A DNA stretch of 64,000 nt from Bilabrum cf. latius (taxonomy: Eukaryota). A program made the position numbers and the translations under genes. The notes beneath the pieces are model-generated. The model did not search any database, was not told the DNA's origin, and was given only the letters and a program-made list of their open reading frames with translations. Location: NCBI GenBank assembly GCA_965178125.1, contig OZ237746.1, positions 248,001 through 312,000 of the forward strand. The letters are read 5' to 3'. This document shows positions 29,701-64,000 of the stretch, one piece after another (within the stretch, counting starts at the first letter, position 1; each line of letters starts with the position of its first letter).

Positions 29701-31065
29701 GCCAAGACAAGCGATGTATATCAGAGTGTGGACGGCTAAGCGAGCGAGTTTCTGGTCTCCAGCTTCTATGATGCTCTGCAGCGCTGCAACGGCACCTGCC
29801 TCTGCCAGCACGTCAGCAGCGTCACCTGAGCGGAACATTATCATGACCAACATCCGCAGCGCTGGCTCTACTGCATTATATTGCGAATTGAATCCGGCAC
29901 AATGAGTGAGCCCTGCAGCAATGCCGACCAGTTCGACTTTGCTTACAATGATGCGGTCGAGCTCAGCTTGACAGGCCACGATGACTGATCGCGAGGTATT
30001 CTTGCAGCAGCGGAACAGCAAGTAATAGACACCATCTTGAAGCTTACGCGCACGAAGCTGTTTGGCGATTCTATGGATTGCATCGCCTCCATTGACAGCT
30101 TCCTTTGCAGCTTCACAGGTGTCCTCGATGCTCTGCCTCATGAGCTGGGAGAGGCCTTCGTCCCCCTTTGGACGCAGGGCGGAGCAGAGCATCCGAACAC
30201 AGATCTCGCTCATTCCAGGAGGCGCCGCCGAGAGGCCCATTCCGGCTTGTTTGATTAGTGCGGGGATGCCAGCCTCTACCGATGGCCCGCCGGCAGCTAT
30301 AGCCTGGTAGCCATCTGCGTCGGCACCCGTGCCAGCACCTGCGGGAAATGGCGCGGCATCCGCAGATGAACCACCCTGCAATACGTGTACTAAGCACTCG
30401 AGAGTGCTTCCAAGCGCGATGGCTGCCAGTCTGGCCTGTTCTGCCTAGTCAGTTGCCGGCTGGCCACTCGCGCTGGGAGCCGATGTGCCTTCGCGATCGC
30501 CGCATGTCTCCGATGGGGTAGGCACTGCGTGTGACCGTGGACCATTTAAAGTTGTAGTGCAATGTGGCAATAGCACAGCCCTCCCGGCTCTGCCCACGCC
30601 ACTGCCTTCGTTCTCCTCCGTCTTCCACATGACGTGGTCCAGGCTCAGCCGGCTGAGATCCACCCCGTGCTGCATCAGGTGGTGCGCGCCCTCTGCGATG
30701 TCGCTGGCAATGAGAACTACTTCAGTAGTAGTGACTAATCCGAAGACTTGCTTGATGTTCTCCAGATGCTGCCTCAGGGTGCACTCGATCCGCTTGGTCA
30801 CGACTACCCTGGCCCTCGCAGGGATCGATGCCTCGTCCTGTGCTCCACCGGATGCGGCTCCCTTGGAGCTGGTTGATGAACGCATCTCCGAACCTGTTAA
30901 AAAGTGTCTCCTCAACCACTTGGGGACGCTTGTTGCCTTGTCGAAGAGGACACTGGCGACGTTGGGATGCTCGGGAACTCGCCCAGGCTGACCGCTTGGC
31001 ACCGTGGCTCCATTCAAGTTGGCTGCACCAGTGTCATCACCGGCGTTGATCTTGTACATTCCCAT
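26725..31065 (-). CDS. Pseudokinase-like N-terminus + armadillo-repeat protein, paralog C (>=1446 aa; both ends uncertain)
   Basis: Fragments 30445-31065, 29023-30381, 28396-29013, 28111-28338, 27775-28032 and 26725-27492 are in frame. PEHPNVASVL...ASDIAEGAHHLMQHGV. Frame stays open upstream to ~31251 without an ATG. The terminal TAA overlaps a GTAAGT that could be a splice donor. Confidence 0.78.
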
Positions 31066-31680
31066 CGTTAGATCTATTTGCTAGGCCTTAGGTTCTGATG
31101 ATCTTGCCGAGCCGCTCGTTGGGCTGCCGATGTCGACAGTGAGGTGAAGCAGCACGGCATCTCCTAGCTCTGTTAGCACCTTGCTATGCCAAGATGGCAA
31201 TTCTTGCGCACGCGATTCGAAAAAAAATCCATAATGACCTTGACTGCAGCTTCAGTTTACATTATCTGCGGTTTTGGCTGTATAGAAAACGATACATTGG
31301 GTGCTCATTGTTCTCGATCGGCGATCCGATAACAACAGGCATCAAGTGACAGGATCGTAAATTTGGAGAGTCAAATAGCTACAATAGTATATGTACAATT
31401 GGTTTGTACAGATCGTTGCTATCGTCTTACCTGCAGGCTTATGCAAGAAGTGCAAAGAAGAGATTACCCCCCCCGCTACGGTAATAAATAAATTTATTCC
31501 CTTCGGTTAAGGATGATTAACATCATCAATAGTTCCAGTCCATCAGAGCTAAAGCTCTTCAGTCCGTTCCACTCCTTTTGGAGCTAGTCGCTCCAAAAGT
31601 CAAGGTGATACTCTTCATACTGCTACTTCATATAACTGCTTTATCCTTCTAATTATATAAAATCAATTTAATATAAAACT

Positions 31681-31809
31681 CTATACGATGACCATATCCA
31701 TAAATTGCGTATTAGTATATGTAAGTTCTAATCAAAACGTGGATGTAGCCCTCTTGTGAAGGTGTTATGGGACTCTAGCCATTTTCTAGCCAAAAGTTCC
31801 ATCACTTTA
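31681..31809 (+). repeat. Dispersed ~130-bp non-coding repeat with inverted arms, copy 1 (others at 33011-33146 and 46291-46425)
   Basis: Shared blocks ATACGATG, ATATCCAYAAATTGCGTAT, AAAAYGTGGATG and AGTTCCATCACTTTA at near-constant spacing. Confidence 0.9.
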
Positions 31810-32172
31810 TGGGACTCCATTATTCAACCTTCTAAACTACCTTCATTATACCCCCTTATCCTCGCTTATACCTTCACAAATGGAACAAACGCGCAACAGC
31901 AACTCGCTACACTCGTCATCGTCAAAATGAACCTGAACCTGAATATTGGAGTTCAGCATTTCTTAGGAAATATGAGGGTCTAACCAACAGGATTTAATAT
32001 TAAAGTTTAAACCTTTATTAAGGGTGTATATGTTTTTAAGTATTAATCTATGCCTATACATCACATAACCCCCTTCATAACCCTAGCCTATAGGCAGGGA
32101 TAACCCCCACATAACCCCCCCACCTCTAAGCGTTTTTTTAAAACTCAAAAATTATAACTTAGTATTATAGAT

Positions 32173-32943: not shown

Positions 32944-35850
32944 AAGCCCCTACAACTTAATAAACGGGCTAGAATTTAATAAAATATTTTAATATAACCG
33001 CTATATTAAAATCTATACGATGGCTATATCCACAAATTGCGTATAATTATATAGTATTTCTAGCAAAATGTGGATGTAGGGCCTCTTGTGAAGGTGGTAT
33101 GGGACCTTAAGATAATTTTAAAAAATAGTTCCATCACTTTAGAAGGTGTTAAAATACACCATTCATATCACAATCTATTTTTTAGGGCTAAATGGCAAAA
33201 ATCACCTTTTACCTTCATTAATTATTATAGCCCCTTTAAGCCCTCTATAATTAAATATGGCGTTTAAAATAGTTTAAAAATATATTTCTAATAATATATA
33301 TAGAAAATGAATAATAAAAACCTTGTAAGTTTCCCCATCAAGCACAATCAAAAAATACCCGATGTTAAAAGTTGGCGATATCTCACCAAACCCGAACCTA
33401 AACGATTTAATAATCAGAATATGGCTATTATCACCGGAGAAATTAATAATATAACCGTGTTTGATATTGATTCATATAAATGGAGCGATAAGAAGGAGCA
33501 TTTATTCATCAAGAAATTTTCAGATGACTTTGTGAAGCGGTTCAACACATTCACGGTTAAAACAGCGGGTGGAGGGTATCATTTATATTTTAAATATGAT
33601 TAGAATATATTAACTACCACCAATAGAGATATTGACGTTGATATTCGTAATGATGGGGCTTATGTAGTGGCACCACCAAGTGGCATAAATGGGTCAAAAT
33701 ACGAAGTTATTAATAATGTAGAAATAAAAAAATGTCCTAAGGAGCTTTATAAATTTTATGAAAAGTATATTATTAAATCCTCTAAGAAATCCAACGTAAA
33801 AGGGGCGAGTAAAAGGATATCAAAAATTGATAATCAAGATGTGAATAACTGTATGATGAAATTCATTCTAAATGGTAAAGACTGGTCAATTATATTAAAT
33901 AGATTAGATAAGAAATATTTAAATAATTATAGTGATTGGTATAAAGCAACCCTAGCGAGTAAATATTTAGGATTTAAGAAGGAATGGTAGGAGTGGAGCA
34001 AGAAGGGCAATAAATACGACTACCACAAAAATAACAAGGTGTGGAACTCTATCCATTATTTTGATAAGTTAAAAACCTTTAATTTAGTTAATTCAATAAT
34101 TTAGAATGATAAAAGTTTAAAGGCATTTGTGAAGGATAAGTATATTTCAAAGTGTTATTATCGTCCTTATGACGAGAATATTAACGGGTATACAGAAATT
34201 AATAAACCTAAGTTAGATGATATAGAGAAGCCCGAACGCTTTTTTAAATATGAATATAACTATGTGGTAAAAAGTGATACAGGAACAGGTAAAACAACAG
34301 CATTTAAGAAGTATATTAAACAGGTTCAAACGCCGTTCTTATCCATTGTGTCCCGTGTATGTTTAGGCACAGAGCAATACGAGAGCTTTTTAAATGAAGA
34401 TATTAAATGTGAGTTCTACCAGAATAAAGATTTTGATTTTGGATAGTCTCTTATTATTACGCCGGAAAGTATCCCCCAAATTGTGAATTATGATTTTTCT
34501 AAATACATCGTATTCTTGGATGAATTCAATAGCATTATAGAGCATATATTAAGTTCTACCACGATGAATAAAAATAGGGTTCTTGTATTATTTATTATTT
34601 TAAAAATGATAAGGACGTGTAAATAGTTTATTGCTGTAGATGCTGACATATCCCAGATAGCGATGAAATTTTTAAAATGTGCTGGAGTAGAATTTAGCTT
34701 CATTAAGAATAAATATAAGCATTTTAAGGACGTAAAAGTATATTTTGAAAAAGACCAATAGAAATTTTACGATAAATTAAAAAGTGAAGATATATTTATA
34801 CTGGCGTGTGATAGCAAGAAGAACGCAGATACATTTTATAAAATGTTATGTAAAGATGGTATAGAGGACGTTAAATTAATTACTAGTGATTTATTACCTG
34901 ATGAAGATGTGAGCTTAGATAAATATGATAAAATTATATTTAGTCCTAAAGTCATTTACGGATTAGATAGTGTAATGGAACGCCCAGTGTATGGATTATA
35001 TAAAGGAAAAACGATTCTACCGCCGTAGATGATGTAGCAACTGGCAAGATGTAGAAATCCCGAATATATGAATATATATTTTGAAGATGTAAAATCCATT
35101 TATCCAAGATATGAGAATTTAAAGGAGGTATAGACGACCTTAAATATGGAAATTAACGCATAGACAGATTTATATACTAAATTAGAAAAATACGAAAAAA
35201 GGATAATGTAGGAGAATGATATTGACATTGATATTTTTGAGGGAGAAGATGATGAAGAGATAGCCCATAAAGCAATGATAGAGGCATCATATAAGGTTTA
35301 TTTACCACTCAAGAAATTATATAATTTCAAATGTGATACATACGAAACAAATAAATATATTCATTTATAGCTTATTCTTAAAAACAGGGGTGCCGATGTA
35401 TAGGTGGATAAGGAATTACCACAACGAATGAATAAATAGCAGATGAAAGAGGCGACAATGGAGATACTACAAGAAAAGATTGATTCAGTTGATGTAGAGA
35501 ACGACCATATAAAAAGAAGAATTGAAATTTTAGGGCTACCAGAGACAGCCATAACGGAGGATATTAAAATGTTATTAATTGATAATTACAAATTAATGAA
35601 TTATTTTAATTATGCTAATTTCAAGAGAAAAGATAAATATAAACTAATGACAGAATTAATGATCCTAACGCCGGATGGGGTTCGGTGTTGATGCCAGAGT
35701 GGGAGCGCGTGAACGTCTCGTTGGGTTCCGATGGCGGTTGCGACCGGGAAGGTGCGACCAAGCCAACGGATTGCTTGCGATGACGCGCATACCCTCTCTG
35801 TGTTCAGGAGAGGGGCGGAGATTGGGTAATTTCACCGACTGGCAGCTTCG

Positions 35851-38800
35851 ATGCACTCATCCCCGCCACCGGTCGACGCTCTACCCGCTCATCAGCCACC
35901 CCGTGAACCTCCTGTCTCATCTTCTGCCTCACCGCAGCCTGCGTCTTCAATTGACCCAGTTTCACCGGGCGCAGGCACGGCAGTGGACTCCGCGGTCGGT
36001 CGCTCGCAACCAGTGGAGAATTTGTAGCGTGAGGCCTCTGCACCTTCAATCGCTGCAATTCGAATGCAGAATTGGTTTTCTGATGATTTCTTGGCAACGT
36101 TGACCTCGATCTTTCGCCAATCCGCGTTCATGCCGCGGTTTTGCTAGGCTGACGCGCTTCATTTGGACGCTAGCGGCCGCGATTTCGCTGCCGAACTGGC
36201 CCGTGCCCTGTTTGGTCAGGCTGTGACGAGAGCCAAGATTGAATCGGCTATTTTCTCGTTCACGAGCCGGCTTCATGCAGCTCTGCCGATGAGCAATGCT
36301 AGTTTTGGGAAGTTTGATGCGTCCAACTCGGAGTCGTCTGCTGCAGGCGGACGAGACAAGTAGGTACCATCTAGCGAGTTACTATGCACTATTTACTCGG
36401 CTATTTCCTTTGCTTTAGGCTGTGTGCTTGTGCGGGCTGCTTGCGTGCATTCGACGGCGTCCTTGCCGTCCTGGTTGCCGCAGGGCAGCAGCTCGTGGTA
36501 GTGTCCAGCATCACTAGTGCCCGATTGGAAAACCTTAGGGCAGGTTCGCAATGATTTTCTTCGTTTAGTTAGTGCTTCCGGGGCATCATCTGCATCGGCG
36601 TCCAGACTAGAGGTGGTGTTTGCCGCTGTGTGTGTGATACCACGCGGAAGTTCAGCTTTTGAGATGCTCTCATCCCATGCTTGGCGCCATACAGGCGAAC
36701 GCTGTGACGTTGAGATTCGTGACCTTGTTGGGAATGAGATTCCATCTTGCTCTTCTGGCGACTGCATGCGTCTCCTACAATTGCTGCATCCGTGGGCCAC
36801 TGAGGCATGCAGATCAGGCGAACCTGGCCTCGTGCGCGGACTGCTACAGGGAGTCCAGGCTGACATGCAGGCGCCGTCCCGTCGAGCAGCACTGTCCCGT
36901 CACTTCGACCCCCGCGGGGGCAGTGGAGGCCGGGGCAGTGGAGGCGGGGGCAGTGGAGGCTCCAGGCACAGCGGGGGTGACAGCGACCAGCCCAGTGCCG
37001 ATCGTGGCGGAGGTCGACACCGTCGAGGCCGTGGACGTGGCGGTGCAGGCCAGCAAGGTGGCCAGCACCAGCGTGCGGACCGGCAGGACGGGGGCTCCAC
37101 CAGGAAGTCCAAGGAGCCTTCACCTGACCCCCCCCCACGAGGTACGTCACGTCAGAGCCAGCCCAGCACTCCAACACCAACACTGCCGCAGGGGCGTACG
37201 CAGACTACCACCACATCGGACGCGTGTGCTGCTTCCACACCACCTGTCACGTCAACGCCCGCGCTTCACCCAGTCCTGGTGGCCCTAGCGCGCCCTAAGC
37301 GACCGCAGCGGCCGCCCACGGCGTCATCCACGAGGCTGCCAGGTAGGACGGACATCTCTCCAGCATTCGTTGACTGGGCATATCCAGCTCCGGATCCAAG
37401 CCATGAGTGGGCAGGGACGACAGCACCCTCCGTCGAGGACTTCATACAGCGAAAGGACGATCACCAGCGTACCAGAGAATGTCCCGGCGAATTCGTGGAG
37501 GCTCCAGCTGCGACGTGGGACCGTGAGCGGCTCCACCTGAAGGTTCACGACGACCCGCTGGCATTCACGCCACGCAAGTACTTCGACAAGGTGCCTCGCT
37601 AGACTGCAACACTGCGGACCCGGCGGGAGGTTCTGTTTGGCGGCCGCACACCGAGGAAGGCCCCGTCCCTTGCCGAGTTTAAAGCCCTCCCACGAGTCGA
37701 GCGTGTACTGGCAGCACTGAACTATGGTTGCCCCCTAGCCATCGTGGACGAGGTGCCCAAAGAGCACGATCTAGACTACAAGGACCGTAAGCTGTCTCCG
37801 GAAGAAAAGTGGGAGATCGCCTGCGAGATCGGGCGCTCCATGCGGGCTGGCGAGCGTGACTTCGTGTCACCCAAAGATTTCGACACAGCCCGGGCCCGGC
37901 CGCTGGTGATCCCCAAGAAGGACTCGACAAAGCTACGGTTCCTTCAGGACTCCTCACTCAAGGTGAACGGCCAGCGTACCGGTCTGAACAAGGCCATCGA
38001 CTACAGTGCAGCCACGCCTGTGCAGCAGACGAGCAGCATGGACGTGCTGCGCTCGGCAGCCGCAGCAGTTCGATCCTGCCCCAAGCGTGCCAGCGGATAC
38101 GTCGTCGACATTTCCTCGTACTTTCGGGTCCTGCCGGTGGCAGTGGAGGATCTCCAATACAACCTGATCAAGCTGCCCGACGGGCGCATCGTGCAAGATT
38201 TCAGGCTCTCTATGGGCAGCTCATCATCTCCCGCATTCGCAACTACGATCAGTTCGGCTTTGGCCCAAGCCCTCGAGGAACAGTCCATTGGCAGGGCCAT
38301 GCGACCCGGACGGAGACACAAGCAGAAGCAACGACGCCGGAAGCAGCAGCACGCCAACGCCCAATCCAGCACGACGGACCAGGCGCCCCAGGCGAACTCG
38401 TCAGCAACGTCCACCCCGCCTGCCGCTAGCACGACAACGGGACATGTCAAGACGGCCCAAGACTAGTCCCGCCATTGGTAGGTCGAAAATGAGGTGTTTG
38501 TAGATGACTTTGCCTGCCTCGGCGGAGATCACGAAGTCGATGCATGGGCAATTCGAGCCATGGGGCAGCTGGACTCCACAAACTTCCCCGTCAGCATCTC
38601 GAAAGCATTGAAGCAAGGGGCCCCAGCCCCGGTATTCGAGTACTTGGGCCTCACCTACGACTTGATCAAACACGAGGTGCGGTGCCCTAAGGACAAGGCC
38701 AACGACGTCCTGCGCAGACTGCACGAGGCACTCACGACGAAGGGGATGCTGCTGTCTAGCTTTGAGACCTTGGTCGGCAAGTTGTCCTTCCTGTCGGGCG

Positions 38801-40386
38801 CACTTTATGGTATGCGCGGTGCTCTACGTCCCCTGTATGACGCCAAGGGCTGGGCCCTTCACAAGTAGGCCAGCCGGTCACGACCAGGTGAGGTGTGGGT
38901 CCCCACCTCCTTTGTGTCCAAGGGTGGCTTCACAGTTGGGGAAATCCTCGAGGGATTCCAGGTGGCTATCCAGCGCAAAGGCGGGCGCAGTTTTCCGATG
39001 CGGGGCACCATTGACTGTCCCATCCTTCGCACTGATGCGTCGGTGACAGGCTACGGCGCCGAGCTGCTTCTCCACGACAAGGACGGCAACATCACTTCGC
39101 ACACCGGCATCCAGGGCACTTGGCCGCATCGCCTAGAGGCGAAGGATGTAGCGGCGGCAGAACTTGCAACATGTTTGTTGGCACTGGCGCATTGGCGACA
39201 GCACCTGCGTGGACGTGTGGTGCGTTTGTGGTGTGATAATGATGCTTCCGTGTAGCTGATACGCTACGGCAGACCCAAGAGCCACATCATGGCAGCCTTA
39301 CTTCGCCCTATCTTCGTACTGCAGACAACGCAAGATGTGCAGATTCACGTGAAACACATTCCTGGCGAGGACAACGTCGTTGCGGACGCTTTGAGCCGCG
39401 GCTCACAGGAGGCATACACGCACCTGGACGCGGTGTATCCGGTCAACTGTCCCACGCCGATCTGGAACACCTTGTCCAAGCACGACCATTTCACGCTGGT
39501 GGCCACTCTGGACTCAGTGGGTTGCGCACGGCGTGGGGGCACTTCGACAACTTCCTCACGTGGTACGACATCGACCGCAGCTTCATGGACGGGCATCTTC
39601 CAGCAGCTCGCAGACTCTTCGCGTTCAGGCTCAATGCAGCGCTCTCGAGATTCGCAGTCTTCTTAGGGGAATGTTCGCCTCTCAGTGGCGGCACCATCGC
39701 TACATACACCAGAAATGCCTAGCGAGTCGTCATCGAGTCCACAGGAGCGTGCGGCGTCCCACGGTCAAGCTAGCTCGACAGCATCCTCCGGTACTACCAC
39801 AAAGCATCGCCATCGGCGCACCCGTTGCGTCGATCTTCAGCCCCACTCCGCGCAATCCGACGGTGTTTCTCGACAGCCGGTTGCAGCACAACAGAGTAGG
39901 CTGCTCGGGCAGCTGTCTGTCTCTGCTTCTGTGGGGGCCTCCGGCTGGGAGAGCTCGTCGGTGCGTCCAGACGACAAGCCGGCCTCCAATGGCAGCAAGT
40001 GCAGTTCATCACGCGAGACGGACGCATCCATGGTGTTGCCATCCGCCTGGGCCTCCACAAAGCCGACGGCCCAGCCAAGTTCTCCATCCAAGCCGCAGAG
40101 CCCATCGCAGTCCATTGCAGAGCCGGACGATGGGCAGTCACAGGCAGCAGGTTCTGCGGCGTGCGAGCCTTCGTGGCGTGGGCAGCAGCGAGCCACGCCC
40201 CAACTGCAGGCGCAGACGAAGACTACGCCCGGTAGCTGGCGCTCAGCTGCCCCACGTCAGGGCCAGTCTTCGTGGCGAACACGAAGCCGATCGTCAAGGC
40301 GCAGGTAGTACGGGCGCTCCGCAGCTTCTGCTCACGAGAAGTTGCAGGAGCGGTGCACGGACATTCCATCCGCATCGCGGCAGTGA
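35851..40386 (+). CDS. Ngaro Gag-like + reverse transcriptase + RNase H polyprotein (single frame, ~1511 aa)
   Basis: ORF fragments 36163, 36517, 37744, 38494, 38893, 39289 and 39685 are all in one frame, joined by TAG. RT: KLRFLQD, YVVDISSYF, LSMGSSSSP, FVDDF, EYLGL. RNase H: TDAS, AAEL, WCDN, HIPGEDNVVADALSR. Ends TGA 40384-40386. Confidence 0.85.
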
Positions 40387-40580
40387 TGTGTTTGGACCGT
40401 GCTGGGGTCGCCTTCGAGGTCATTAGGCGATTTGGCAGATGGAAGTCGGCATCTGCATGCGAGGTGTACTTGCGGGGCGTCAGGGAAGGCTTGCCTCCTC
40501 TGGAGCTCGGCGGCAGGAGCCTCGATTTGAACAGGCCAGTGTGGGTGCTGGCCAGCGCGCTGCGGCTGAACTTGGAGTGA
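39243..40580 (+). CDS. Ngaro tyrosine recombinase (start undefined; overlaps the pol frame)
   Basis: Frame open from 39243 to TGA 40580 with two TAGs; catalytic signature GGLRLGEL (R), LHKAD (K), HSIR (HxxR), GRWKS...VY (W, Y). Confidence 0.88.
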
Positions 40581-41565
40581 GCCACACAGCCGCAGCGTAC
40601 AAGACATGGCGGTAAGATTTGGCGGAGTAGTGCACGTGCTCTTCCCAGCCCCGGTCAGTCCGGTCAAGGGTCGCGCACAGGCACAGCTTTGTCAGGTCTT
40701 GCCATGTCTGATTGTTAACGAGACTAGGTTGCGCGTACACTCTGGCATCATGATCCTAACGCCGGATGGGGTTCGGTGTTGATGCCAGAGTGGGAGCGCG
40801 TGAACGTCTCGTTGGGTTCCGATGGCGGTTGCGACCGGGAAGGTGCGACCAAGCCAACGGATTGCTTGCGATGACGCGCATACCCTCTCTGTGTTCAGGA
40901 GAGGGGCGGAGATTGGGTAATTTTTGCCCACCCTCCCAACCCCCTCCTCCTCGGCGGAGTAGTGCACGTGCTCTTCCCAGCCCCGGTCAGTCCGGTCAAG
41001 GGTCGCGCACAGGCACAGCTTTGTCAGGTCTTGCCATGTCTGATTGTTAACGAGACTAGGTTGCGCGTACACTCTGGCATCAAGGATAGAAAGGATTTTA
41101 AGGATGAGAAAGCAAAAAGTACAAAGAATAAAATAATCATATTGTAGGAGATGTTATAGACGCTTAAATTGAATAAATTTGATTTAAGTTATACACGTAA
41201 AAATGAGAAATCCATTAAATATATAGAAATGGGTAAAAGATATGTAGAAGTAAGCGGGGCGAGATTATAGAAGCCAATAGAAACCGATAGTGAATTACAC
41301 GGGGCAATCGTAAAATTATATAAGTAGTTATTTGGAAATATCAAAACCTCCTGGAGTATGGGGAATAAAAAGGATAAAAAGGATAGAGAATTAAGAATTA
41401 AATTCACCAAGGAGAAAGAATTATTTGATGAAGTTTATAAATATTAGTATCCCGAAATGAAGGACGTATACAAGGAATCCAACGAACGATTAGATTAGAA
41501 TATTTAATACCTTTTTTATGTGTTTAAAATAACTTAAACATTATATATTTATATAATATATAGTG

Positions 41566-43385: not shown

Positions 43386-44885
43386 TCAAAGCATTAAACC
43401 GCCTTTTTTTCCTTTCCTTGATATAATTTCTTCTTTTTCATTTACGACCATTAAATCATTCTATCCGTGGATAATTAATTTCTATCCTTCTTCATTTATC
43501 TATTCTTCTTTATATTCACCTAATTCTTTACCTACTTTAAAATTTAATCTTTTGTTAAATGTGATACTGTCGGTGTGAATTCGTATAATATGTTTAGCGT
43601 TGTTCTTATTCACTTTCTTCATCAATCGTTGTCTTCCATATGCCAGAATAAAAGGTTTCAATTTTCCCCAGCTATATTTAAAGGGTACTTTATGTTTCAA
43701 ATGATAAATAAATTCTCCGTCATTATCCATTTCTACACGGTCAATATCAAATTTATCTATATTTATTTTTTTATCATCTTTTGATGTAATTGTCTTTTTA
43801 GAGGAACTACATAATTTACCCCATAATGAATTTAATATTTCTTTTGCTAGATATGATTTGCTTTTTAATTTGTAGAACATTGAGACATAGGATTTAAAAA
43901 GTGTTTCACCTTTGATATATTTATCATAGGTCATAAAATTAAATTCGTCGCTTGACATCTCTATCTCACACCCATATTTAACAAACATATTCATATCAGT
44001 AAAGACATAATAAGTAAATTCATTTTCAAATACCTTCATCATTTGAAAGATATTCGGGTCGCATTTTCCACGGCTTACCTTACATTTATAAATCCCTATT
44101 TCGTTTTTATTATTAATCTATTTATTATCAATTGTTTTATAAATAGGATTTCCATATGGTAGTAGTGAATTAGATGACATAATGGCGGGGTAATGACTAT
44201 TTATATCGTAGGTGATAAACTCCTCATATTGTCCCTTCTTGTGATATTGAATCCCGCCACGCGTTGAACCTTCAATAAATACCGCTTCCTCTGGGGTTAT
44301 ATCTGGTGGGCTATCTATCATCATATTAAACATTGTAAAGAAATGAAGGGCTGTTTGTCTGATTCCATATTTCATTACATCTAATGATGGGTTCTCGTCG
44401 TGTAATTCATCACTTGCTATACTCAGCCTTAAGCTCCATTCTTTGATATCTTCATCCTCTGGGCATTCGTGAATGGTGTAATGAAGATAATATTTCTTTG
44501 AATGATAATCGGTTAGGCTCTCAACTCTATATTTATCTTTTTCAATTATTTCGGCTTTATCGGTTAATTTAACAACCATAGATTTATGGCACCGCACAAA
44601 TAAAGGTTTCATCCTCTAGACGGCTTTAAATGAACCATCTTTATATTCTAAACAAACCCTTTTAAAACTCTTTTTTTTCCTACTTAGATAATAGACCTTT
44701 ATATCGTCTTTCTCTCTAATCTCTATATCCATTTTTAAACCTGAAACAAGTTTATAAAGGTTCTTTGTAGTTATGGGCTTACCGTTAAATACCTTTTCTA
44801 GATACTTCACGGATTGAATGGGGTTATCATACTTTTTACCAAAGCATATATTTAATTGATTTAACACATTTTCGTAATTTATCAT
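43386..44885 (-). CDS. polB: Short family-B DNA polymerase (499 aa; protein-primed type likely; no recognisable exonuclease motifs)
   Basis: TRGG, YDINSHYP (motif A), KEILNSLWGKL (B), RIHTDSI (C); one frame through TAGs to TGA 43386. Confidence 0.85.
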
Positions 44886-44904: not shown

Positions 44905-45137
44905 TCGATCCGATGGCTACCGGCGCCGTTCATGTTAAATGAACGGAGCAGGAACTTTCTTCAAAAATTACCCAATCTCCGCCCCTCTCCTGAACACAGA
45001 GAGGGTATGCGCGTCATCGCAAGCAATCCGTTGGCTTGGTCGCACCTTCCCGGTCGCAACCGCCATCGGAACCCAACGAGACGTTCACGCGCTCCCACTC
45101 TGGCATCAACACCGAACCCCATCCGGCGTTAGGATCA
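44905..45137 (-). mobile_element. Inverted Ngaro remnant: repeat A plus a ~60-bp tail unlike repeat B
   Basis: 44964-45137 is the reverse complement of A2 (including GGGTAATTTTT); 44905-44963 is GC-richer than the virus and contains the hairpin CCGTTCAT-GTTAA-ATGAACGG. Confidence 0.9.
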
Positions 45138-47702: not shown

Positions 47703-49151
47703 TTAAGATGTGCTTAAAAGGGCCTCAAGATCGTCTGTTTTCATTGCCGCACCTCCACGCATCGTAAGTTTTCCACCAAGTTTATTCAATTCTCCTCCAC
47801 TATTTCCATATCCATAATGTGCCGCCGCTTTGCCAAGAGCACTATTGTCTCCTGTTAGACTTTTGAGTGGTCCTATATTCCTAATGGTTTTCGCTAGGTT
47901 TTTAGCCTAATCACTTTTTGCCCAATCTTTAACCTTGTTCCATCCGTGTTTAAAGGCTCGTCCAATCTTAGACCAGAAACGACCTTTTCCACCCATAACA
48001 TTAGCATAATTATCTAAATCCTCAAATACAGGCTAGAAACCTTTAGAACCACTTTCAGCATCACCACGTTTAGCAAGTTCAGAAAGCACTTTAGAAGGCT
48101 CAATAAGGGCGCCAGCCTCAGTATAGACACCGTTATCATTCACAAGAACATTATCATAAAACATCCATACTTTTACCTCGTATTTATCCTCATACGCACC
48201 ATCCGCATATTTATTATAAGGGTTGAAGCACTAAAGATTAACTTTAAGATTAAATCCAGTATTTACATTAGATTGAACACCAGCAAGTGTAGCAACATCT
48301 GAAGGTTTTAAAATCATATAGCAACCAGTACCGCGGTTTCCATCACTTCCATCAATTGATGAACCATAAAAGGATGAAGGAGGAAGAGCATATCCGTTCT
48401 TTCTACTAATTCTATATAATTCGTGTGGATTATCTACAGCCCCTAATTCCTCAGCGCTTCCATTGAGTGAGAAACCTATTCTTCTAATTGGTAAAGTTCT
48501 ATTAGCCCAGTTAGGGTTATCATCACAACCAACAAGGCGGGCACATACCATAATAGCACTAGGGATACCATTCTCACGGGATAATTGATAATCAAAAGAA
48601 GTTAAAGAATTTTCAGTTGCGGATTTAGGTACAGGGACAGGCGCCTAAGACTAAAATTTAATTGTAGGCATATTATACATACAACGAGTCGGGGGGGCGT
48701 ATCCACTCTAAAATTCAACTTCATCAACAAGAAGGGTCGTATTTGTTTCTCCTATAATTGACTAACCCGTTATTTTGTTAATATCTCCGTTATCTTTTGT
48801 AAAACTAGCCTTACACAGTCTTTGAATGGCATTTACGTGATAATCTAAATCAACCTGAAGGCTTCTCACACCGGTGAAATATTTAGCATTCACATCAACA
48901 TCTGCTCCTTTTAGTGGTATAGCTTCTTGAAAATCAATAGTCCAATCAATTTGGTCTCTATTACCCGCAACGAAATCAGCACTTACAGTCGTAAAAGCAT
49001 TCCCATATGCTCCACGATAACTAAAGCTATCACCGGCACTATATCCAACATCCTAACCCCAAGCTAAAGGATTTTTAAGGGTATCACTTACTTCACGATA
49101 ATCACCAACAGTGTCAGGGCGTCCAACGGGTGAGATTGTGGATAAGGTTTG
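47703..49151 (-). pseudogene. Major capsid protein of element 1, 5' part (~130-140 codons) displaced by element 2
   Basis: ~482 codons open to TAA 47703. Collinear with MCP 56008-57774 (NPLAW/NALAS, FTGVRSL/IFGLETL, GIPSAIMVCAR/SVPSRLFVFAR, ELYRISRKNG/QLWDLSRSNG, basic Gly-rich tail). Homology stops at the G7 run at 49151. Confidence 0.85.
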
Positions 49152-49634
49152 GGGGGGACAACAGGTGGTGGTAGGTACACCAAGCGTTTAGGACGAGGGC
49201 TACGCTACGCTCGCCCCTCCTTTAAAGGCATATTTAGCAACTCAAGTGTTTCCCCTATAAACCTAAATGATTTCACAGGGGGTTCCCCAAGAACCCCTAT
49301 AGAACCCCTCTATGTACCCATTTTCAGATATAAAATTTACTCCTACGAAGTAGGGGTAAATTGAAGAATTCTAATATTTAACCCCCTTATAAACTCTAAC
49401 AGCAAAGACAGAGATGTTTTAGTAAAGTAGGAAAAAATGAAGAAATTAACCAAGTGTCCAAAATATCTCTGTGTTTGCTGTAGGAACGGAAGGATGAATT
49501 CCCAAGAGACCAAGAGACCAACCGAGGATTTCCCCAAGAGAACAAGGTATTTTATCAAGAGACCGAGGTATGTTCCCAAGCGACAAACCGATAAACCGAC
49601 CGATGAACCGACCGATGAACCGACCAAGGATTTC

Positions 49635-50570
49635 CCAAGATGCTCGGGCTTTGCCCTCCGCTCTTTTGATATCTTTTTCAAAGATTGGATTTCCCAAGGA
49701 TTTCCCAAGCGACTAAATTGTTCTCCGAAGCAACCAAACCGATTACCCAAGAGATGATACATTATAAGGAAAACGAAAACGTATTTTAAGTCCCTTTGGA
49801 AAAGTCCCCCAAAAATTGAGAGATTTTACAGGTCAATTATAAGAGACTTAGAAAAAATAAATTAAGTTCCCAAGATGCTCGGGCTTTGCCCTCCGCTCTT
49901 TTGATATCTTTTTCAAAGATTAAAATTAAATGTTGTAATTCCTATGATGCCACCATAAAAATTAAAAGGAAAATAAAAAACAAATTATAATTGTTTTCCA
50001 ATTAAAAACACAAAAATTGATTGAAAAATTTTGACAATATAGGATACAAAGAAATATTAAAATTAATTTTCCAAGATGCTCGGGCTTTGCCCTCCGCTCT
50101 TTTGATATCTTTTTCAAAGATTGGATTTCCCAAGGATTTCCCAAGCGACTAAATTGTTCTCCGAAGCAACCAAACCGATTACCCAAGAGATGATACATTA
50201 TAAGGAAAACGAAAACGTATTTTAAGTCCCTTTGGAAAAGTCCCCCAAAAATTGAGAGATTTTACAGGTCAATTATAAGAGACTTAGAAAAAATAAATTA
50301 AGTTCCCAAGATGCTCGGGCTTTGCCCTCCGCTCTTTTGATATCTTTTTCAAAGATTAAAATTAAATGTTGTAATTCCTATGATGCCACCATAAAAATTA
50401 AAAGGAAAATAAAAAACAAATTATAATTGTTTTCCAATTAAAAACACAAAAATTGATTGAAAAATTTTGACAATATAGGATACAAAGAAATATTAAAATT
50501 AATTTTCCAAGATGCTCGGGCTTTGCCCTCCGCTCTTTTGATATCTTTTTCAAAGATTGGATTTCCCAAG
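49635..50570. repeat. Subterminal 436-bp tandem duplication containing five copies of a ~52-bp core
   Basis: Core CCAAGATGCTCGGGCTTTGCCCTCCGCTCTTTTGATATCTTTTTCAAAGATT at 49635, 49870, 50071, 50306 and 50507; the two alternating spacers are themselves exactly repeated. Confidence 0.95.
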
Positions 50571-50752
50571 AGATGATAATTAAGACCATTCTATATCACT
50601 ATAGTAAATGAACCCATTTTTAAAGGAGTTGATGATAGAGCATATTGTCAAGCAAATTAATCCACGTATTTGGAAAAAATTACACGAAAAACTAAAGGAA
50701 TACAAGAAGCTCGGGCTTTGATATAAGTAGAAGACTATACTATAAAGTACTT

Positions 50753-51037
50753 ATGAAGCTACATACCTACGATTTTGAAAAGGTTGTTGAGAATTTTCTA
50801 TTTAAAGCACCCTCAAGACGCAAGAATAAGAAGTATGATGTTTTTGACGAAAATGATGAATATATTACATCGTTTGGTGATAGGCGGTATTAGCAATTTT
50901 ACGATAGAATAGGGTATTACAGCCATTTAAATCATTTAGATACGGACCGCCAATTTAGATACTTCAAACGACACGGTATCGAAGTAAAACCAAGAACCCC
51001 AAAGTTCTTCTCACATTTTTACCTTTGGAGTTCATAA
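50753..51037 (+). CDS. Tlr6F-like small protein (94 aa)
   Basis: SRRKNKKYDVF...ITSFGDRRYQQF...RYFKRH...PKFFSHFYLW. Confidence 0.72.
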
Positions 51038-51568
51038 ATGACACGTCAATAAATACACTAATTCATCAGGATTTAATGTATGTTTCTTACAAACCTTATC
51101 CACCCACTTTTTATACTAATTAGCGTTTTTCGCTCTATTCCATAACCTTACTATACAATGTCTCCCGCAGGTTGCTATATCCATTCCATCCGCCTAAAAC
51201 TAATAGGGGTTATAGTCAATTTTATAAGGAGAATGATACATTAAATAAATTAACTCAGGGTCTTCATAAAAACGTTTCCGGACGCTTTCACTCATTGTAT
51301 GCTGTTGTCTATCAGGACGAATTCCATAACTGTCAAAGAAGTATACAGTACCCTTACGCTTAAATAAGCACACCCAATGACCAGAGTTTATTTCTTCTTG
51401 GTATAGAATGATACAACAATTACAACGACTAAATAATCCATCAATACTATTGTACTATCCTAATTCTGTATATGGAACGATGTTTACCGACGTAGGAAGA
51501 AATGCCTTAATATTTGGTGGAGTTTTGAGGAGAACACGAATATCACTATCGCTAAGAGCATAATCCAT
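51032..51568 (-). CDS. Virion maturation cysteine protease (adenain/Ulp1-like clan, 178 aa)
   Basis: SGHWVCL (His), YFFDSYG (Asp), Y(TAG)F(TAG) (oxyanion Gln region), ATCGRHC (Cys); absent from the ORF track because of TAGs. Confidence 0.92.
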
Positions 51569-51757
51569 ATATATTTATTATAGAAACATATATTGGGGGA
51601 GATGAATTCTCTTAACCACTATTTAAGTGTAGAAGTATTTCTACAAAATCCGTTTTGGAATTTGTGGATAATATAAAAGACAATCATTCAAAATAAGTTT
51701 TCAACAAAAAGACAAAACACTTTAGAAAATATAAAAACATATAGTAAATATACTAAA

Positions 51758-52663
51758 ATGGCTCATTTTTCTTGGAAGGAAACTACAAAATCAACACCCA
51801 TCGCATACGATACACACGGAAAACGTATTTTATACACAGCGGAAAAGACAGACAACCAATTTGGAGATGATAGTATATCATTCTAGGATTTTCAAGTATC
51901 ATCACTTACAGGGAAACGATTTCCGCAGAGGAAAATGGATTTATTAGCACGACACTTAATCAAACAGGTCGAACCCCTAGATGAAGACATAAAATATTTA
52001 TATGAGAAAGCATAGGAAAAGAAACATAAAGAGATTACATTAAAATAGGGTGAATTTTAGTGTCTTCCAAATCCAGATATTCAAAGGGAAGTGGTATATA
52101 TCACAGCTCCAGCAGGAAGTGGGAAAAGTACTTGGGTGGGTAAATACGCTAAGAATTACAATAGATTATTTCCAGACCGACGTATTATTTTATTTTCTAG
52201 GGTTGGGGTAGATAAGGCCTTAGATGATTTGAAGAACCTAAGTAGAATTGAATTAAATTAGGAATTAGTGGAAAACCCTATTGATTGCCACACAGAATTA
52301 AAGGATTGTTTAGTTATTTTAGACGATATAGATACAGTAAGAGATAAAGACGTAAAAAAGGCTTTGATAGATTTATAGGACGATATTTTACAAGTTGGTC
52401 GCCACTCAAATACGTCAATTCTAATGACTTCTCATTTATCCACAAATTATAAAAGTACCCGAATTATTCTTGCGGAAAGTCATAAGTTCGTTATATTCCC
52501 TTAGTGTTCATCCGCACATTCTCTAAGGTATTTGTTAAAGAATTATATAGGACTTGAGAAACAAGAAATCTCTAAAGTCTTAAAAATGCCTTCCAGGTGG
52601 GTCTGTGTCCACAGGAATTACCCGAGGTATTTAATTGGAGAAAGGTAGGCTTACCTTCTATAA
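51758..52663 (+). CDS. FtsK/HerA-family (A32-like) genome packaging ATPase (301 aa)
   Basis: YITAPAGSGKST (Walker A), LVILDDID (Walker B), QVGRHSN, MTSH, TRIILAESH; ends TAA. Confidence 0.92.
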
Positions 52664-54792: not shown

Positions 54793-55902
54793 ATGAGTTC
54801 TCCAGACCGATTTTACATTACCGCAAACATACGAAATAACGAAGATACTTTCCAACCAGCGACCTATAGCGAAACCCGCAAGTAGCCATTATTAGATAAG
54901 GATGTTGGTGATTATACGATGTCAGTATTCCGGTTTTCCATAAGCACCAATTCAATACCTTTATGGGTTCCACACATAGAAACCGATAAAGTGAAAAATC
55001 CAACTTCAAATCCTAATCAAACAGTGTATAGAATAAGCATTACAGATGAAGACGGAGTAAGTTTGTGGACCTCAAGCATTCAGTGGAGACCCTAGTTAAC
55101 AGGGGAAAACCAACCCCCTTTTTCCAATCCTATGTAGTTTGTTCCTTATTATTATATGTATTCCGTGTAGCATTTTGTTGATTTATTCAACGAAACCCTA
55201 TAGAACGCTTTGTCAGCGGATATTACATCAGTTCCGGTTTTACTCTTTAAAGATGGTAAATTTTCTTTAGTAGCAAACCCCGATTACGACGAGGAAAACT
55301 CAGGACAGAAATTTAAATTAGTGTTGAATGAAGCCCTTAACGAACTGATGACGGGTTTTCCTATGGAACGAATGGATATCCAAGATGACGACTTATACGC
55401 AAGCATTCTATTCAAATCCTTAGGAACGAATGTTTAATTTGATGATGGCTCTTCTGTTGGAAAATATGAACCTTAGGCATACTTCGAGGGAAACCCAACG
55501 GGAGACTACAGATTAATGATGACCTAGGAACGAGGGAGTTTAGTGTAGTTTTAGATTTTTCGCGGAATAGTTTTCACATCTTCAAGTCTTCCAGTGAGGA
55601 GTGAGGCAATATCCTAGAAATCCGCCTATGGACAATCCACTAATACAGTTCAAAATTCAGGTTCAGGGACCGAGAGTTTATTAGTGGATATGGATTGTGT
55701 ATTAGATGATACTGAAACAGTTAATTAGTAGGTTCTTCAATACCAGCCCCATATTCTCCACGAAATTGATTTTTTAGATACACATTCAGTAGATAGGATT
55801 TAGTTTAATCTATATTGGAAAGACAATTATTCAAATCTAAGACCTCTTTATTTACGCCACGGAAGTGTGAGTGTGAAGTTTTTATTTAAGAAACGGAAGT
55901 GA
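54793..55902 (+). pseudogene. Minor capsid (penton) protein, ~369 codons, with one in-frame TAA at 55435-55437
   Basis: YSETRKQPLL..DYTMSVFRFSISTNSIPLWVP at the N-terminus; IVFTSSSLPVRSE and LYWKDNYSNLRPLYL...SVKFLFKKR at the C-terminus; immediately upstream of MCP; frame continues unshifted past the TAA. Confidence 0.8.
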
Positions 55903-56007: not shown

Positions 56008-57774
56008 ATGTCATTGAATACATTTGCCCTTCAGCCAGTCAAAGTATCTCCCGCAACATTAGACGTACAACCAAAGCCTTATGAAGTTCAAGAAGGTTAT
56101 GAGAACCGAACGTTTCGCAGATACGCTCCATCTGGTTCAGCCGGTAATTATAATTCAGGTGTGAATTGGAATATTAGTATGCCTTCAGGTGTAGGTTTAT
56201 GCCGCCGCGCATACGTGTCTTGCCGTTTTTCCATTACCTTTTCCGTGAATAATCAAACCGCAGGTGCTCTCGTACCATTTACACCAGATTACGATGCTCC
56301 ACGCTCATATCCACTTAATCGCTCCATTGCAACACAGACAGTTGGTATCAATAACATTCGCTTTACTTAGAATAACGCGGAAATAATGGACGTAGTGTCC
56401 CATTGTTTAGATGATGATGTTCATCGTGTGAATTGCCTTGATAGTGTGTATAGACGCGACAATGTGCCTTCATACGCGATGATGAGTTAGGCTACAAATA
56501 ACGCTCTTGCTTCGTATGAGGACGTGCTTTAGGACCAACCCGCAAGAGGAAGTGGATTTTATAACTTGGTTCAAATGGATAACACTCCAGTGCCCGCAGG
56601 TCAAACGCAAAATCGTGTTCTTGTCTTTGAATGTACTGAGGCGGTTCTTTGCCCACCTTTCCATTACGAAAGTAAATAGGAACAACCAGCCATTTTCGGT
56701 TTAGAAACTCTTTCCTTGGATATCAATTGGTCGCAACTGAGTAGAACCGTGTGGTCTCGTATTCCACAATAGGACTTAACTGCTACCGTTTAGTCGGTAG
56801 ATGTCCAGAACCCCTATTTATACCTTGAATAGATTACCCCTAAAACAGGGTTTGTCCTTCCAAAACAGGTATCCTATGATATTTTTGAAATGACTTCATA
56901 TACTCAAAGCTATGGTGCAACAATCAGCGCAGGAACAACAGCAACTCTTACGAACAACAATATTAAACTTAGCAATTCAGTTCCATCTCGTCTATTTGTG
57001 TTTGCCCGTCGCTCACCTACCAGCGTCTCAGTAGATTAGGGAAACACATTCCTTGGAATTGAGGGAATATCTATTGAGATGAATAACCAAAGTGGATTAC
57101 TCGCAGATGCTTCACCTCAGTAGCTATGGGACTTATCCAGAAGCAATGGACTTGAATAGCAATACGCGGAATGGGCTATGCGTAAATTCGGGGATAGGGT
57201 GCTATCAGGCGCAATTCTCTCCATCGACCCCGCCAAGGATTTGAGCCTAGATGTAGATTAGACAAATGGAAGCAACGGCTCTAACCAATTGTCTATCACC
57301 CTACGAGTGAAGAATAATGATGTTGTAGATTACCAAAATGTGTAGTGTGTGGTTGTGGGATTGTACGAAGGAGTAATGAATGTGATTGATGGTTCTAAGA
57401 TTGAGTATTAGCAGGGTGTCATCTCACGGGCAGATGTTCTTTCCGCCTCTAAACTACCCGTAGTATATGAAAGTCAATTATCAGGACTACACGGTCGCGG
57501 TCTTGGGAAAAAGATTAGACACGCCTTAAAAAAGTTCGCACACAAAACCGCTGATTGGGTAAAGAAAGGCAATCTCAAAAAAGTATTAAAGGATGGTAAG
57601 TAGGTATTTGACACCGCTAAAATGGTGGGTGAAATGGCTGGTATGGGACGCCAAAGGAAACCCCGAAAAACTACCAAGAAAGGCAAGGGCTTAACAGGTG
57701 CCAAGTTGGGTTCTGGATTAACAGGTGGTAAATCTCTCTCTCGCAATCAATTACTCGCTATGCTCCAAGCTTGA
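56008..57774 (+). CDS. Virophage-type double-jelly-roll major capsid protein (588 aa)
   Basis: APRSYPLNRSIATQTVGINN, VPSRLFVFARR, NNQSGLLADAS, LSIDPAKDL; basic Gly-rich C-terminal extension; intact with TAG=Gln; ends TGA. Confidence 0.9.
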
Positions 57775-60759: not shown

Positions 60760-60814
60760 TTCAATCTTTTCTAAAAATTTTCATGCCGTTCCGCCGGCAA
60801 ACTGCGGTGTTTGG

Positions 60815-62656
60815 TCAATCTTTTTTAAAAAGTTTCTTCTTACTGTGAATAATTTGACATTCACCTGATTGCTCCAACTTCATACCCCCAAGGTTCGTTG
60901 ATAACTTTAGAGGTAATTCTTTCTCACTAATGAAACCATCCGTGTTGACATAGTGAATGTTTTCAAGATATGGCTCAATCATTTTGGACAATTTACTTCG
61001 TCCAAGTCCAGTCAGAAAGGGGCCCATTCTTGCGTAGGCTGTTTTGTAATCGTACTCTTCGTCATATAGTATACCCGATACAAGTCGTCCAGATGCTTTA
61101 GGATACGCGTTCTTTAATTGTCTAAAATTCATACAATCACCATCTCGGAGTGTTTTTGTGATTGTGTTTTTCTAACATAGAGAACCCCAAATATTATTTA
61201 GTATCTCCTTCGCACACTTCAATCCCTATTTTTTATAACCGTACAATCGCTCAATCATCGTTTTGAACAGTCCATTTGCCTTCACCCTTGTTGTCTCATC
61301 GTAAAGTAAAGCGTTGGCTTCACCGTCTTCAATCAGAGACACCTAAGCGCCCGTCTCAATCGCTCGGTTAATGTCATATTGGGTATAATAATTGTTTTTT
61401 CTTTTTTGTACCAATTTAGAATTGATATTTTCAATATGTACCCTAAAAATGCCGTACGGATAGAAACCACTTGAAGGTACTTCAAATTTTACGAACTTAC
61501 CCCTTCTAACCGGAAATGTAAATGTACCCTTCATAATACTTGGATAAAATGAGTTAATATCGTACTGGTATGCGTTTTTTAATGTAGTATTCTTGTTTGC
61601 CCAATTCAATCCACCACCCGAGGCTTTAGAAATCCATAGTGCTTCAACTTGGTCAATCGGGTCGGCAGGGTAAAGTTTGGAAAACTTACTGAAATACGAC
61701 TTTACAAATAGGGATGTTCTAAACATAAATCGTGATAAATCCATATATCCACCCGTCTCCTTCGCTAATGCCCTTACATTTTTCATCCGTTCTTCGTGTT
61801 TTGTTCTTAGTTCTTCCTTGGACTTGACTTCAAAGATGAATTTATCCTTGGAAACTGATGTAATGCCTTCTGATTGATACTCACGGTCTCCATCAAATAG
61901 TAAATAAGAATTCTCGGATTGATACAAGCGGGTAATTAGCGTACACGGTTCTTTAGACGGCGGTGTAAATAATTCTTTCTAACTAATGGGGGGAACATAC
62001 TTGTAATGCCCATTTGTTAATGAAACAGTTAGAAGACGGTCAAAATGAGTTTTTCCAGATGTGTATTCAAAGTCGCCTACAACATGAATGCGTACTTGAA
62101 GTTCGTCTTCTATCTCTGGTATTCTTCTGTAATCAACGGGGTCATCACGTCCAATTTTCAAGAGTTCTTTGAGGTCGGACTTCGACAATCTTTTAATAGT
62201 AGTTTTCCATTTGCCTTTTGCGCTCTTTACATTTACCTTACGACCAACTGAAAAAGGAAAAGCCTGTTTTATAGCGTTATATAAACAATCGTTATGTTCG
62301 TCAGCACCGCCTTCTGGTTCTGGCTTTCTAATAAGCAGTAGTTCAAAAGAATTCAATTTTCTATATTCGTCGTCATCGTCGTCTTCGTAGCCCGCCCATA
62401 AACTATCTTGATTTTCTAAATCATCTGTAGTAATCCAAGTGCTTCGTGTTCGCCAACCTGTATCTTGGTAATTGATATTCACCTTAAATTTAAAGTCATC
62501 AAACGGATTTTCACCACCATCGTCGTAATCACGAATAAATTCCAAGACATTTTTTACGGTGATAAGGTCCTCGCTCTCAAATCGCATACTCCATATTGGT
62601 TTCCCATTAAGACGCAATTTGGTTCTTTGGGGTTCCGTAAAATCGATTTCGGGCAT
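60815..62656 (-). CDS. polB: Short family-B DNA polymerase (613 aa; protein-primed type likely)
   Basis: ASGGG, YDINSFYPSIM, KEILNNIWGSL, YVNTDGF; three track ORFs in one frame, joined by TAG; ends TGA. Confidence 0.87.
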
Positions 62657-62713: not shown

Positions 62714-64000
62714 TCACTTCTCAATTTTACAGAGGAATTTGGAAAGTTTTCCTTTTTTGTTCTTTGGTGGGTTCTCTTTTATCCATTTTTGAATAGCGAT
62801 GCTATTCTCAACACTCAGCTGTTTCTGGATTTTCTTATGGACTTGTTCCGTCGGTGTAATCTCCTTTTCTAATTCCAACTATTCAATCGTTTCCTACTGC
62901 TATGCGACTTGTTTCTGTAGTTCTCTAATCTACTCTCGAAGAACATCTACCTCGGATTTTGCTTTTTCCATCTCAGCAGAATGACGAAGTGCCTAAAATT
63001 TAGATTGGAAGCCTTTTAGTAAGTCTGCGTGTTTCACATTAAATTCTTGTTTTCTCTATTTGTTCATCGTTGAATGAACACCTACCTCTGACAATAGTGT
63101 TTTAATCATAGGTGTACCAAGGTTCTTCACTCTACCGTTCAGTTCCTGCTTTAGATAATTGCGGAATTCCAAGACTGTCATTTTAAAATCTCTGCCTTCG
63201 TCCAGCCACTCTTCTTTTAGAATTTTTAAAACCGGATGTGCGCCATCAAGAATTCCTTTGTAAAAATTCTTTGATTTTGGTGCGAATTGTCCTGTAAAGT
63301 CTGGTGATTTATCATAGATTTCAACCAATAACATATAAAATGCCTTAGCCACTTCTGGATTTTCTGTAAAACGTTTTAGTGTTGTAAAGTATTCTTTGTC
63401 TCCTTTCTTTGATGTATTCACATCCAAAACACAATATCTACGGATTTCCTCGGTGATTTTGATTGGACTATCATTCGTATCAATAATTAGATTGAATGTA
63501 TTCGGACGACTTTCGGATTTGACAAACTTCTCATTACAGGAAAAGTGTTTTTCCGTAATAAGATTTCTTAGTGTTGCCTACATGGCGTCCCAAATAGTTG
63601 GCGAGGCTTTTGGAATTTCATTAAAATTGACTAATAGTTTCCCGTCCAGAATTGAGTTGAAGGCGTCGGGTTGAAGCATCTTGTGTGTAAGCGTCTATAG
63701 TGTAAGGGTATATCCGAGTAGTTTTCTCATAAGGAAGGTAATAATCATCGATTTACCAGTTCCTTGTGGAGATTTCAAATATAGTGCTGTTCCCAACTTC
63801 TTTCCGCCCACAATAACGTGAGCCAACCATTTCATCACAAAATCACACTATTCTTTGTCTTCTGAAGTCCACACCTTCTGGATATGTTCATAAATCATAG
63901 TCGCGCCTGCTTTTGCGTCTTCGGATAAATCCTCTATGTTTCCACAGTTTTCCCGTGTAAGTATAGGTGAACCCATAACGTTAATTGTTTGATTGTCGTA
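62714..64000 (-). CDS. Superfamily-3 (D5-like) helicase, 5'-truncated by the window edge
   Basis: FVMKWLAH, LYLKSPQGTGKSMI (Walker A), LVNFNEI (Walker B), IIDTNDSPI, RRYCVLDV; coiled-coil tail; ends TGA 62714. Confidence 0.88.

Follow-up and report, generated by a model that had tools for sequence, protein, structure and literature searches.

Mavirus carries pPolB, and the EMALEs of Cafeteria burkhardae use the standard genetic code. For mavirus, the consulted part of the preprint describes an rve integrase, terminal inverted repeats (TIRs) of ~615 bp, duplications of 5-6 bp and 11 integration sites without a consensus (bioRxiv 10.1101/068312). The Cafeteria EMALEs are AT-rich, bounded by TIRs and embedded in a GC-rich host genome; they encode an rve integrase, are flanked by 3-5-bp duplications and contain Ngaro inserts, according to the sections consulted (PMC8547959). 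In Halocafeteria seosinensis nine virophages and five PLVs lie within other viral elements, and main-text passages report nested elements with TIRs and duplications and term viral DNA an insertion hotspot (bioRxiv 10.64898/2026.07.28.741278). Here we describe a virophage, E2, inside the capsid gene of a second virophage, E1. The interruption itself is confirmed, and its reading as a nested integration is supported.

The analysed window comprises 64,000 nucleotides (C12:248001-312000) of a 48.6-Mb eukaryotic assembly in 111 contigs, in which host DNA has 50-70% GC and viral stretches 26-43%. E1 extends from window position 31468 to C12:336989, the element proper measuring ~25 kb. Its left TIR (31468-31894, ~428 bp) starts with C7 and is preceded by the 5-bp target-site duplication ATTAC (31463-31467), which is repeated past the right end at C12:336989. 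The gene set comprises a divergent major capsid protein (MCP), a penton, PolB, a primase-helicase, an rve integrase and two DUF285 proteins, together with candidates for the ATPase and the protease. Penton (PF21507) and integrase (PF00665) score over the Pfam cut-off, and the ATPase and protease candidates were recognised by motifs and by likeness to their E2 counterparts. The PolB-type polymerase (43386-44885, minus strand, 499 aa) shows polymerase motifs and no Pfam hit; its identity to the E2 polymerase is 26% over 324 aa (E = 1.7e-21). The primase-helicase, 925 aa in an uninterrupted copy, is represented by its 5' part (33307-35659, plus strand, Prim-Pol and PriCT_2 hits) and is interrupted by a GC-rich retroelement (35660-41081, plus strand). 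This insert contains RT/RNase H and tyrosine recombinase ORFs, with RVT_3 over and Phage_integrase under the cut-off, and split direct repeats in the order A...B-A-B, a combination that we take to be the defining structure of Ngaro retrotransposons. A 232-bp remnant with a Ngaro terminal repeat lies at 44906-45137 (minus strand). The earlier note had proposed at least three secondary insertions, and this E1 copy indeed carries five: E2, two GC-rich retroelements, the second of which is 8.8 kb long with split direct repeats, and two retroelement remnants.

The E1 MCP matches the mavirus MCP (6g45) over residues 92-615 with E = 3.6e-8, a distant relationship only, and the E2 MCP at 23% identity over 568 columns (E = 3e-13); Pfam PF22031 is reached under the cut-off only. 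By its likeness to these two proteins it is a major capsid protein of the virophage type. A search of 5.8 billion proteins, of which 7,999 candidates were scored, yielded no relative; this points to poor sampling of such lineages. E1 also contains a conserved intergenic repeat (family D8) with TATCCACAAATTGCG at window positions 31669, 33001 and 46281, with a shorter match in E2; this repeat is a candidate promoter or binding site.

On C12, E2 measures 17,343 bp (window 49151 to C12:314493) and is bounded by TIRs of 662 bp. The left TIR (49151-49812) starts with G7, and its inverted counterpart, predicted by the earlier note to lie beyond the window, was found at C12:313832-314493 with 100% identity. 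What that note had called a 1.4-kb terminal-repeat-like region is a perfect repeat over these 662 bp; the remainder belongs to a subterminal repeat array (49630-50570) with five copies of a 69-bp unit and a 436-bp duplication. Pfam bears out the MCP and PolB of the proposed second, divergent gene set, the latter just under the cut-off; the zinc finger is recognisable by eye only, and the labels 'Tlr6F-like' and 'fibre' were not confirmed, with no Pfam hit that fits them. The MCP (56008-57774, plus strand, 588 aa) contains 14 TAG codons, scores over the cut-off with PF21915 and PF22031, and matches the Sputnik V20 protein with E = 5.4e-29, far better than the mavirus MCP. It has 2264 relatives at E<=0.001; a scan of IMG/VR with the same protein returned 0 loci. 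The penton gene (54793-55902, plus strand, PF21507 over the cut-off) is shortened on C12 by a premature stop to 214 aa versus 369-371 aa in the 12 other copies of the 13 compared, either by mutation or by a consensus error. The remaining genes are a PolB-type polymerase (60815-62656, minus strand, 613 aa; motifs and PF03175 at E = 1.3e-5), a DUF5906 helicase of 553 aa that starts beyond the window (62714-64000, minus strand) and, also beyond the window, an rve integrase with a chromodomain (C12:312433-313488, minus strand; PF00665 and PF00385 over the cut-off). Adjoining the capsid genes are a maturation protease candidate (51032-51568, minus strand, 178 aa) with 31% identity to its E1 counterpart (E = 2.7e-13) and no Pfam hit, and a packaging ATPase candidate with a P-loop (51758-52663, plus strand), which has generic AAA hits under the cut-off and matches its E1 counterpart with E = 1e-7. 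The catalytic motifs of both, including the His/Asp/Cys motifs of the protease, were identified by eye.

As in rve-integrase elements of the mavirus/Polinton type, E1 and E2 combine an integrase with TIRs (428 and 662 bp) and 5-bp duplications. The latter were present at 19 of 19 end pairs of E2 and its more distant relative E3 and at 18 of 18 E1 end pairs, counting ends with a partner. Both have the four virophage core genes, ATPase and protease as candidates, and from their sequences both would act like mavirus-type integrating virophages, with no genus claimed. The two families are young: for E2, copies from unrelated loci are only 0.1 substitutions per kb apart in the pairs C30/C40, C25/C22b and C14/C9. 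Some 140 substitutions separate the C12 ATPase allele from each of the 12 others compared, and the protease allele is likewise distinct (together 51032-52663), which points to E2 copies as mosaics of gene alleles that would have arisen by recombination between variants. A stretch of 54 bases (60779-60832) is skipped in all three well-covered public runs and appears to be an insertion or duplication private to the C12 E2 copy.

The junction between the two elements lies at 49150/49151. On the E1 side of it, the 3' part of the MCP gene (47703-49150, minus strand, residues 149-629) is severed from its start; the frame is open only with TAG read-through, a condition absent from the earlier note. 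As the earlier note had seen, homology ends at the G7 run at 49151. The N-terminal part is indeed missing, but its size was put too low at 130-140 aa: compared with the 629-aa protein of an uninterrupted natural E1 copy the break falls in codon 148, and ~148 codons are absent. The short duplication of the flank and the missing 5' end that had been predicted are both found beyond E2. GGTTT flanks the element on both sides (49146-49150 and C12:314494-314498), and the 5' part of the gene (C12:314494-314940), which in the other direction continues into the E2 TIR and stops at 173 aa, is followed by the E1 penton, protease, ATPase and right TIR to C12:336989. An empty site that agrees with this duplication is present in 17 of 19 E1 copies compared, the remaining two being C12 and a copy on contig C4; among 20 E1 MCP matches, 18 are without interruption. 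Since the 5-bp duplication agrees with the empty site of 17 other copies, the predicted inactivation of E1 by nested integration holds in cis: the gene is split by E2, and this E1 copy cannot make MCP by itself. Among the contigs examined from four public runs, which drop rare variants, none bridges 49150/49151; one in run X5 passes into empty-site sequence and one in run X2 extends past 49150 off the stretch, so that these records speak neither for nor against the junction.

A second E1 copy is interrupted in the same MCP codon. It lies at C4:1225273-1281257, with host flanks and an E1 duplication that differ from those on C12, so that the two loci were rejected as alleles of one another. Its E2 (C4:1242361-1259606) is flanked by the duplication GTTTC. 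Both junctions are shifted by 1 bp relative to C12, and each duplication fits the natural empty site. The orientation is opposite, as the E2 and E1 MCP genes are antiparallel on C12 and parallel on C4. We also considered a single insertion altered by inversion between the TIRs or by gene conversion; by our reasoning either would leave the junctions in place, and both ends are shifted by 1 bp. Between the E2 copies on C12 and C4 there are 18.1 substitutions per kb, many of them in the C12-specific ATPase/protease allele; the C4 copy is nearer to C25/C22b (5.4 per kb), and polymerase, helicase and integrase of the C12 copy differ from C30/C40 by 2, 0 and 0 bases. In the replication module, too, each is closer to other copies than to its counterpart. 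The E1 hosts are 5.3 per kb apart and have no other insert in common; at distances of 166 and 181 bp from the site their alleles differ, and each allele also occurs in uninterrupted copies. At none of 45 sites where both agree against C7 (four outgroup copies) do they have a private variant in common. Because the two E1 hosts are without shared private variants, a second integration is the most likely course, and we regard C12 and C4 as very probably the products of two independent E2 integrations.

Several features might account for the position. The 16 oriented E2 sites have no consensus beyond a C beside the duplication, so that E2 does not qualify as a sequence-specific element. This C follows the duplication at the integrase-side end in 13 of 16 sites (p = 1e-5, uncorrected for 84 tests), and both MCP insertions agree with the preference. 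The opposite end shows no mirror G bias across the 16 sites, which is odd given that the ends are identical. For E1 a polar base preference was suspected at six sites and was gone at 16. At the insertion point the other 14 oriented E2 sites have no target sequence in common with the MCP site or with each other. With a position-weight matrix derived from 13 of them (C28 dropped), both MCP insertions rank no better than within the top 2-25% of positions and the per-pair chance is 1.3e-4 to 2e-3, leaving the coincidence unexplained. The dyad AAG-N4-CTT at the site was rejected as a signal because it is not unusual within E1, where 13-16% of positions equal it, and the folding energy is ordinary. 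A motif, TATCCACA, lies 2-3 bp from the insertion site. E1 has 4 copies of it (1.2 expected), three of which belong to conserved intergenic repeats, and E2 has 3 (0.65 expected); it may serve as a lead only. Among flank motif, dyad, folding and matrix, none is sufficient as a cause of the site preference.

Nesting is found elsewhere in the genome too. All element counts are lower bounds, with the best 40 of 95 and 40 of 43 candidates scored, and 13 of ~17 E2 and 7 of ~20 E1 copies were examined fully or nearly so. The assembly holds at least six nesting events. E2 lies inside E1 three times (C12, C4 and C30), the third insertion being ~9.7 kb from the MCP site, and E3 lies inside E1 on C6. The reciprocal arrangement also occurs, with a full E1 (659482-685525) within an E2-type copy at C22:646387-690251; at least five virophage copies are clustered in the surrounding region (C22:646-828 kb). 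E1 is furthermore found inside another virus-like element with integrase and P-loop homologues (C2:98857-126984 and C6:701637-727751). This C2/C6b pair was rejected as a second same-site case, since the flanking sequences agree at 100% for 5.8 kb, reaching into GC-rich DNA; it is one duplicated locus, present either as alleles or as a segmental duplication. An E3 end on C9 adjoins AT-rich DNA with a PolB homologue, at one end only. Three of the 17 listed E2 copies lie in E1, which makes up ~1% of the genome (P = 7e-4; P = 2e-2 should insertion be tolerated in only 30% of the genome). The earlier view of this locus as an integration hotspot therefore needs to be recast: nesting is spread over the genome, and the sharper hotspot is the base-pair site in the E1 MCP gene that was hit twice.

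Several further observations concern the same families. Two E1 ends with a 5-bp duplication form a 700-bp element at C17:888986-889686, and two E2 ends with a 5-bp duplication bound a 3.6-kb element at C41:392333-395969; both are possible non-autonomous derivatives. At C14:1091838 and C14:1139270 E2 ends lie inside Ngaro-type reverse-transcriptase genes (the first by BLAST, the second by eye), a virophage-in-retrotransposon arrangement that is the reverse of the Cafeteria pattern. More virophage types or divergent relatives of E1 occur at C9:386273, C30:698088 and C14:251696-281371.

From the integrase gene and the duplications we infer that the E2 rve integrase acted on a resident E1 provirophage, joining both TIR ends across a 5-bp staggered cut in a concerted reaction that, by analogy, would follow retroviral-type chemistry. 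The MCP gene is split on C12 and, very probably through an independent second event offset by 1 bp and with E2 in reverse, also in the C4 copy. Viral DNA may gather insertions because it tolerates them, and possibly also because the chromodomain guides the integrase towards silenced chromatin; within E1 the MCP position may be locally favoured by the structure of the DNA or chromatin, or by a protein bound there, and not through a strict recognition sequence. That the integrase inserted E2 in the ordinary way, at a position of E1 that is locally preferred, is the reading that we consider probable. Two real, independent and near-random insertions could also have coincided by chance, E1 serving as a neutral landing pad at ~19 loci. 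This would fit the lack of any motif or structure that accounts for the site, the third E2-in-E1 insertion ~9.7 kb off, and the absence of sequence specificity for the integrases of mavirus and EMALEs in the parts of the published accounts consulted. Under uniform insertion into a 25-kb target, however, a pair within 1 bp has a probability of 3.6e-4 (three pairs) or 7.2e-4 (six pairs, E3 included), and in the seven E1 copies whose retroelement inserts were mapped, these show no comparable recurrence. As the test is post hoc and concerns two events, it may be widened to all insert families, retroelements included, whereupon the probability approaches 1% by our own arithmetic. On balance we hold coincidence to be rather unlikely. 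A third reading takes the precision at its word: a protein bound at TATCCACA would tether the E2 integration complex to the E1 capsid gene, disabling a rival for the giant-virus helper. The base-pair accuracy in both orientations and the recurrence of the nearby motif in both elements would agree with tethering, as would the 13-mer beginning at the insertion site, which is common to all 13 E2 copies; but 3% of E1 sites overlap some 13-mer shared with E2, the motif is near no other E2 site, and its three intergenic copies in E1 are without insertion. Most E2 copies are located elsewhere, E1 in turn lies inside an E2-type copy, and with 18 MCP matches intact the knock-out of a competitor would be ineffective, so that directed targeting appears distinctly improbable.

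The remaining readings dispute that the two insertions arose separately or exist at all. If an E1+E2 composite had been duplicated, C4 could have gained a second E2 1 bp away and lost the first precisely by slippage between the 5-bp repeats, which by our reasoning reproduces the C4 junctions exactly and would imply that the bias concerns E2 ends already in place and not the MCP gene. A duplicated nested locus does exist in the assembly (C2, C6b), and adjacent EMALEs are recorded in the consulted part of the Cafeteria work. This course requires three steps, though, and is at odds with the E1 hosts, which have neither a private variant nor a remaining insert in common and carry near-site alleles that occur in uninterrupted copies; nor is there an adjacent E2 end pair among the 41 matches listed. 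We judge shared ancestry very improbable. An erroneous joining of E1 to E2 through repeats might be suspected given that both families are multicopy and nearly identical. Repeat collapse cannot, however, yield twice a fitting 5-bp duplication with a consistent 1-bp shift, and E1 is collinear on either side and has its own duplication; misassembly thus seems hardly credible. Insertion by the E2 integrase at a locally preferred site remains our favoured account. As 18 intact MCP matches exist elsewhere, the loss of two copies is unlikely to matter to the cell.

Viral and retroelement frames are open only with TAG read-through; TAA and TGA act as stops. TAG most likely encodes Gln in both virophages, judging from codon comparisons. 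When 13 natural E2 copies are compared, CAA or CAG accounts for 14 of the 22 different codons that stand opposite a TAG, and in an alignment of the E2 MCP with relatives of >=500 aa (141 of 150) Gln is the most enriched residue, 2.7-fold, in the 13 scorable TAG columns. Host genes show read-through too, with seven TAGs in a 1446-aa armadillo ORF and one in a variable column of BiP, by which the residue is not fixed. Read-through was noted throughout the window, including 26725-31065. In public data the nearest relatives of the E2 MCP, at 51-71% identity, are fragments; several of them begin or end close to TAG positions, a hint that the recoded clade may be wider. No report of virophages with TAG=Gln was found in the literature searched, which covers few subscription journals; an ochre tRNA is described in one virophage clade in the consulted part of one study (PMC6905037).

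Virophage integration is regarded as sequence-independent, and two hits 1 bp apart offer a concrete site for tests of target choice by a chromodomain rve integrase. The genome holds over 35 insertions from two young families, with some copies only 0.1 substitutions per kb apart, and should allow targeting and tolerance to be separated as causes of nesting. If directed targeting were true, this would be virophage-against-virophage interference in a host with TAG=Gln, one endogenous virus disarming a rival for its helper. The code itself has a practical consequence, as standard gene calling breaks up both virophages.

Among known systems, yeast Ty3 is tethered to a bound factor and so inserts within 1-2 bp, in both orientations. 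Such position-specific elements use their own target class almost always, whereas the MCP site was used in two of the 17 listed E2 copies. The Cafeteria EMALEs differ from the E2 site in that the authors find no sequence-specific integration, and a virophage inside a virophage is not described in the sections consulted (PMC8547959). The Halocafeteria host, unlike the genome studied here, has no Ngaro elements and 47% GC, and main-text passages of the preprint contain neither a one-base recurrence nor recoding, although its supplements may list sites (bioRxiv 10.64898/2026.07.28.741278). In the literature searched, which mostly excludes subscription journals, we found no base-pair recurrence of one virophage in another. 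Virophage-in-virophage nesting is thus already published; what appears new here is its recurrence to the base pair in the capsid gene of a rival, together with the probable TAG=Gln code.
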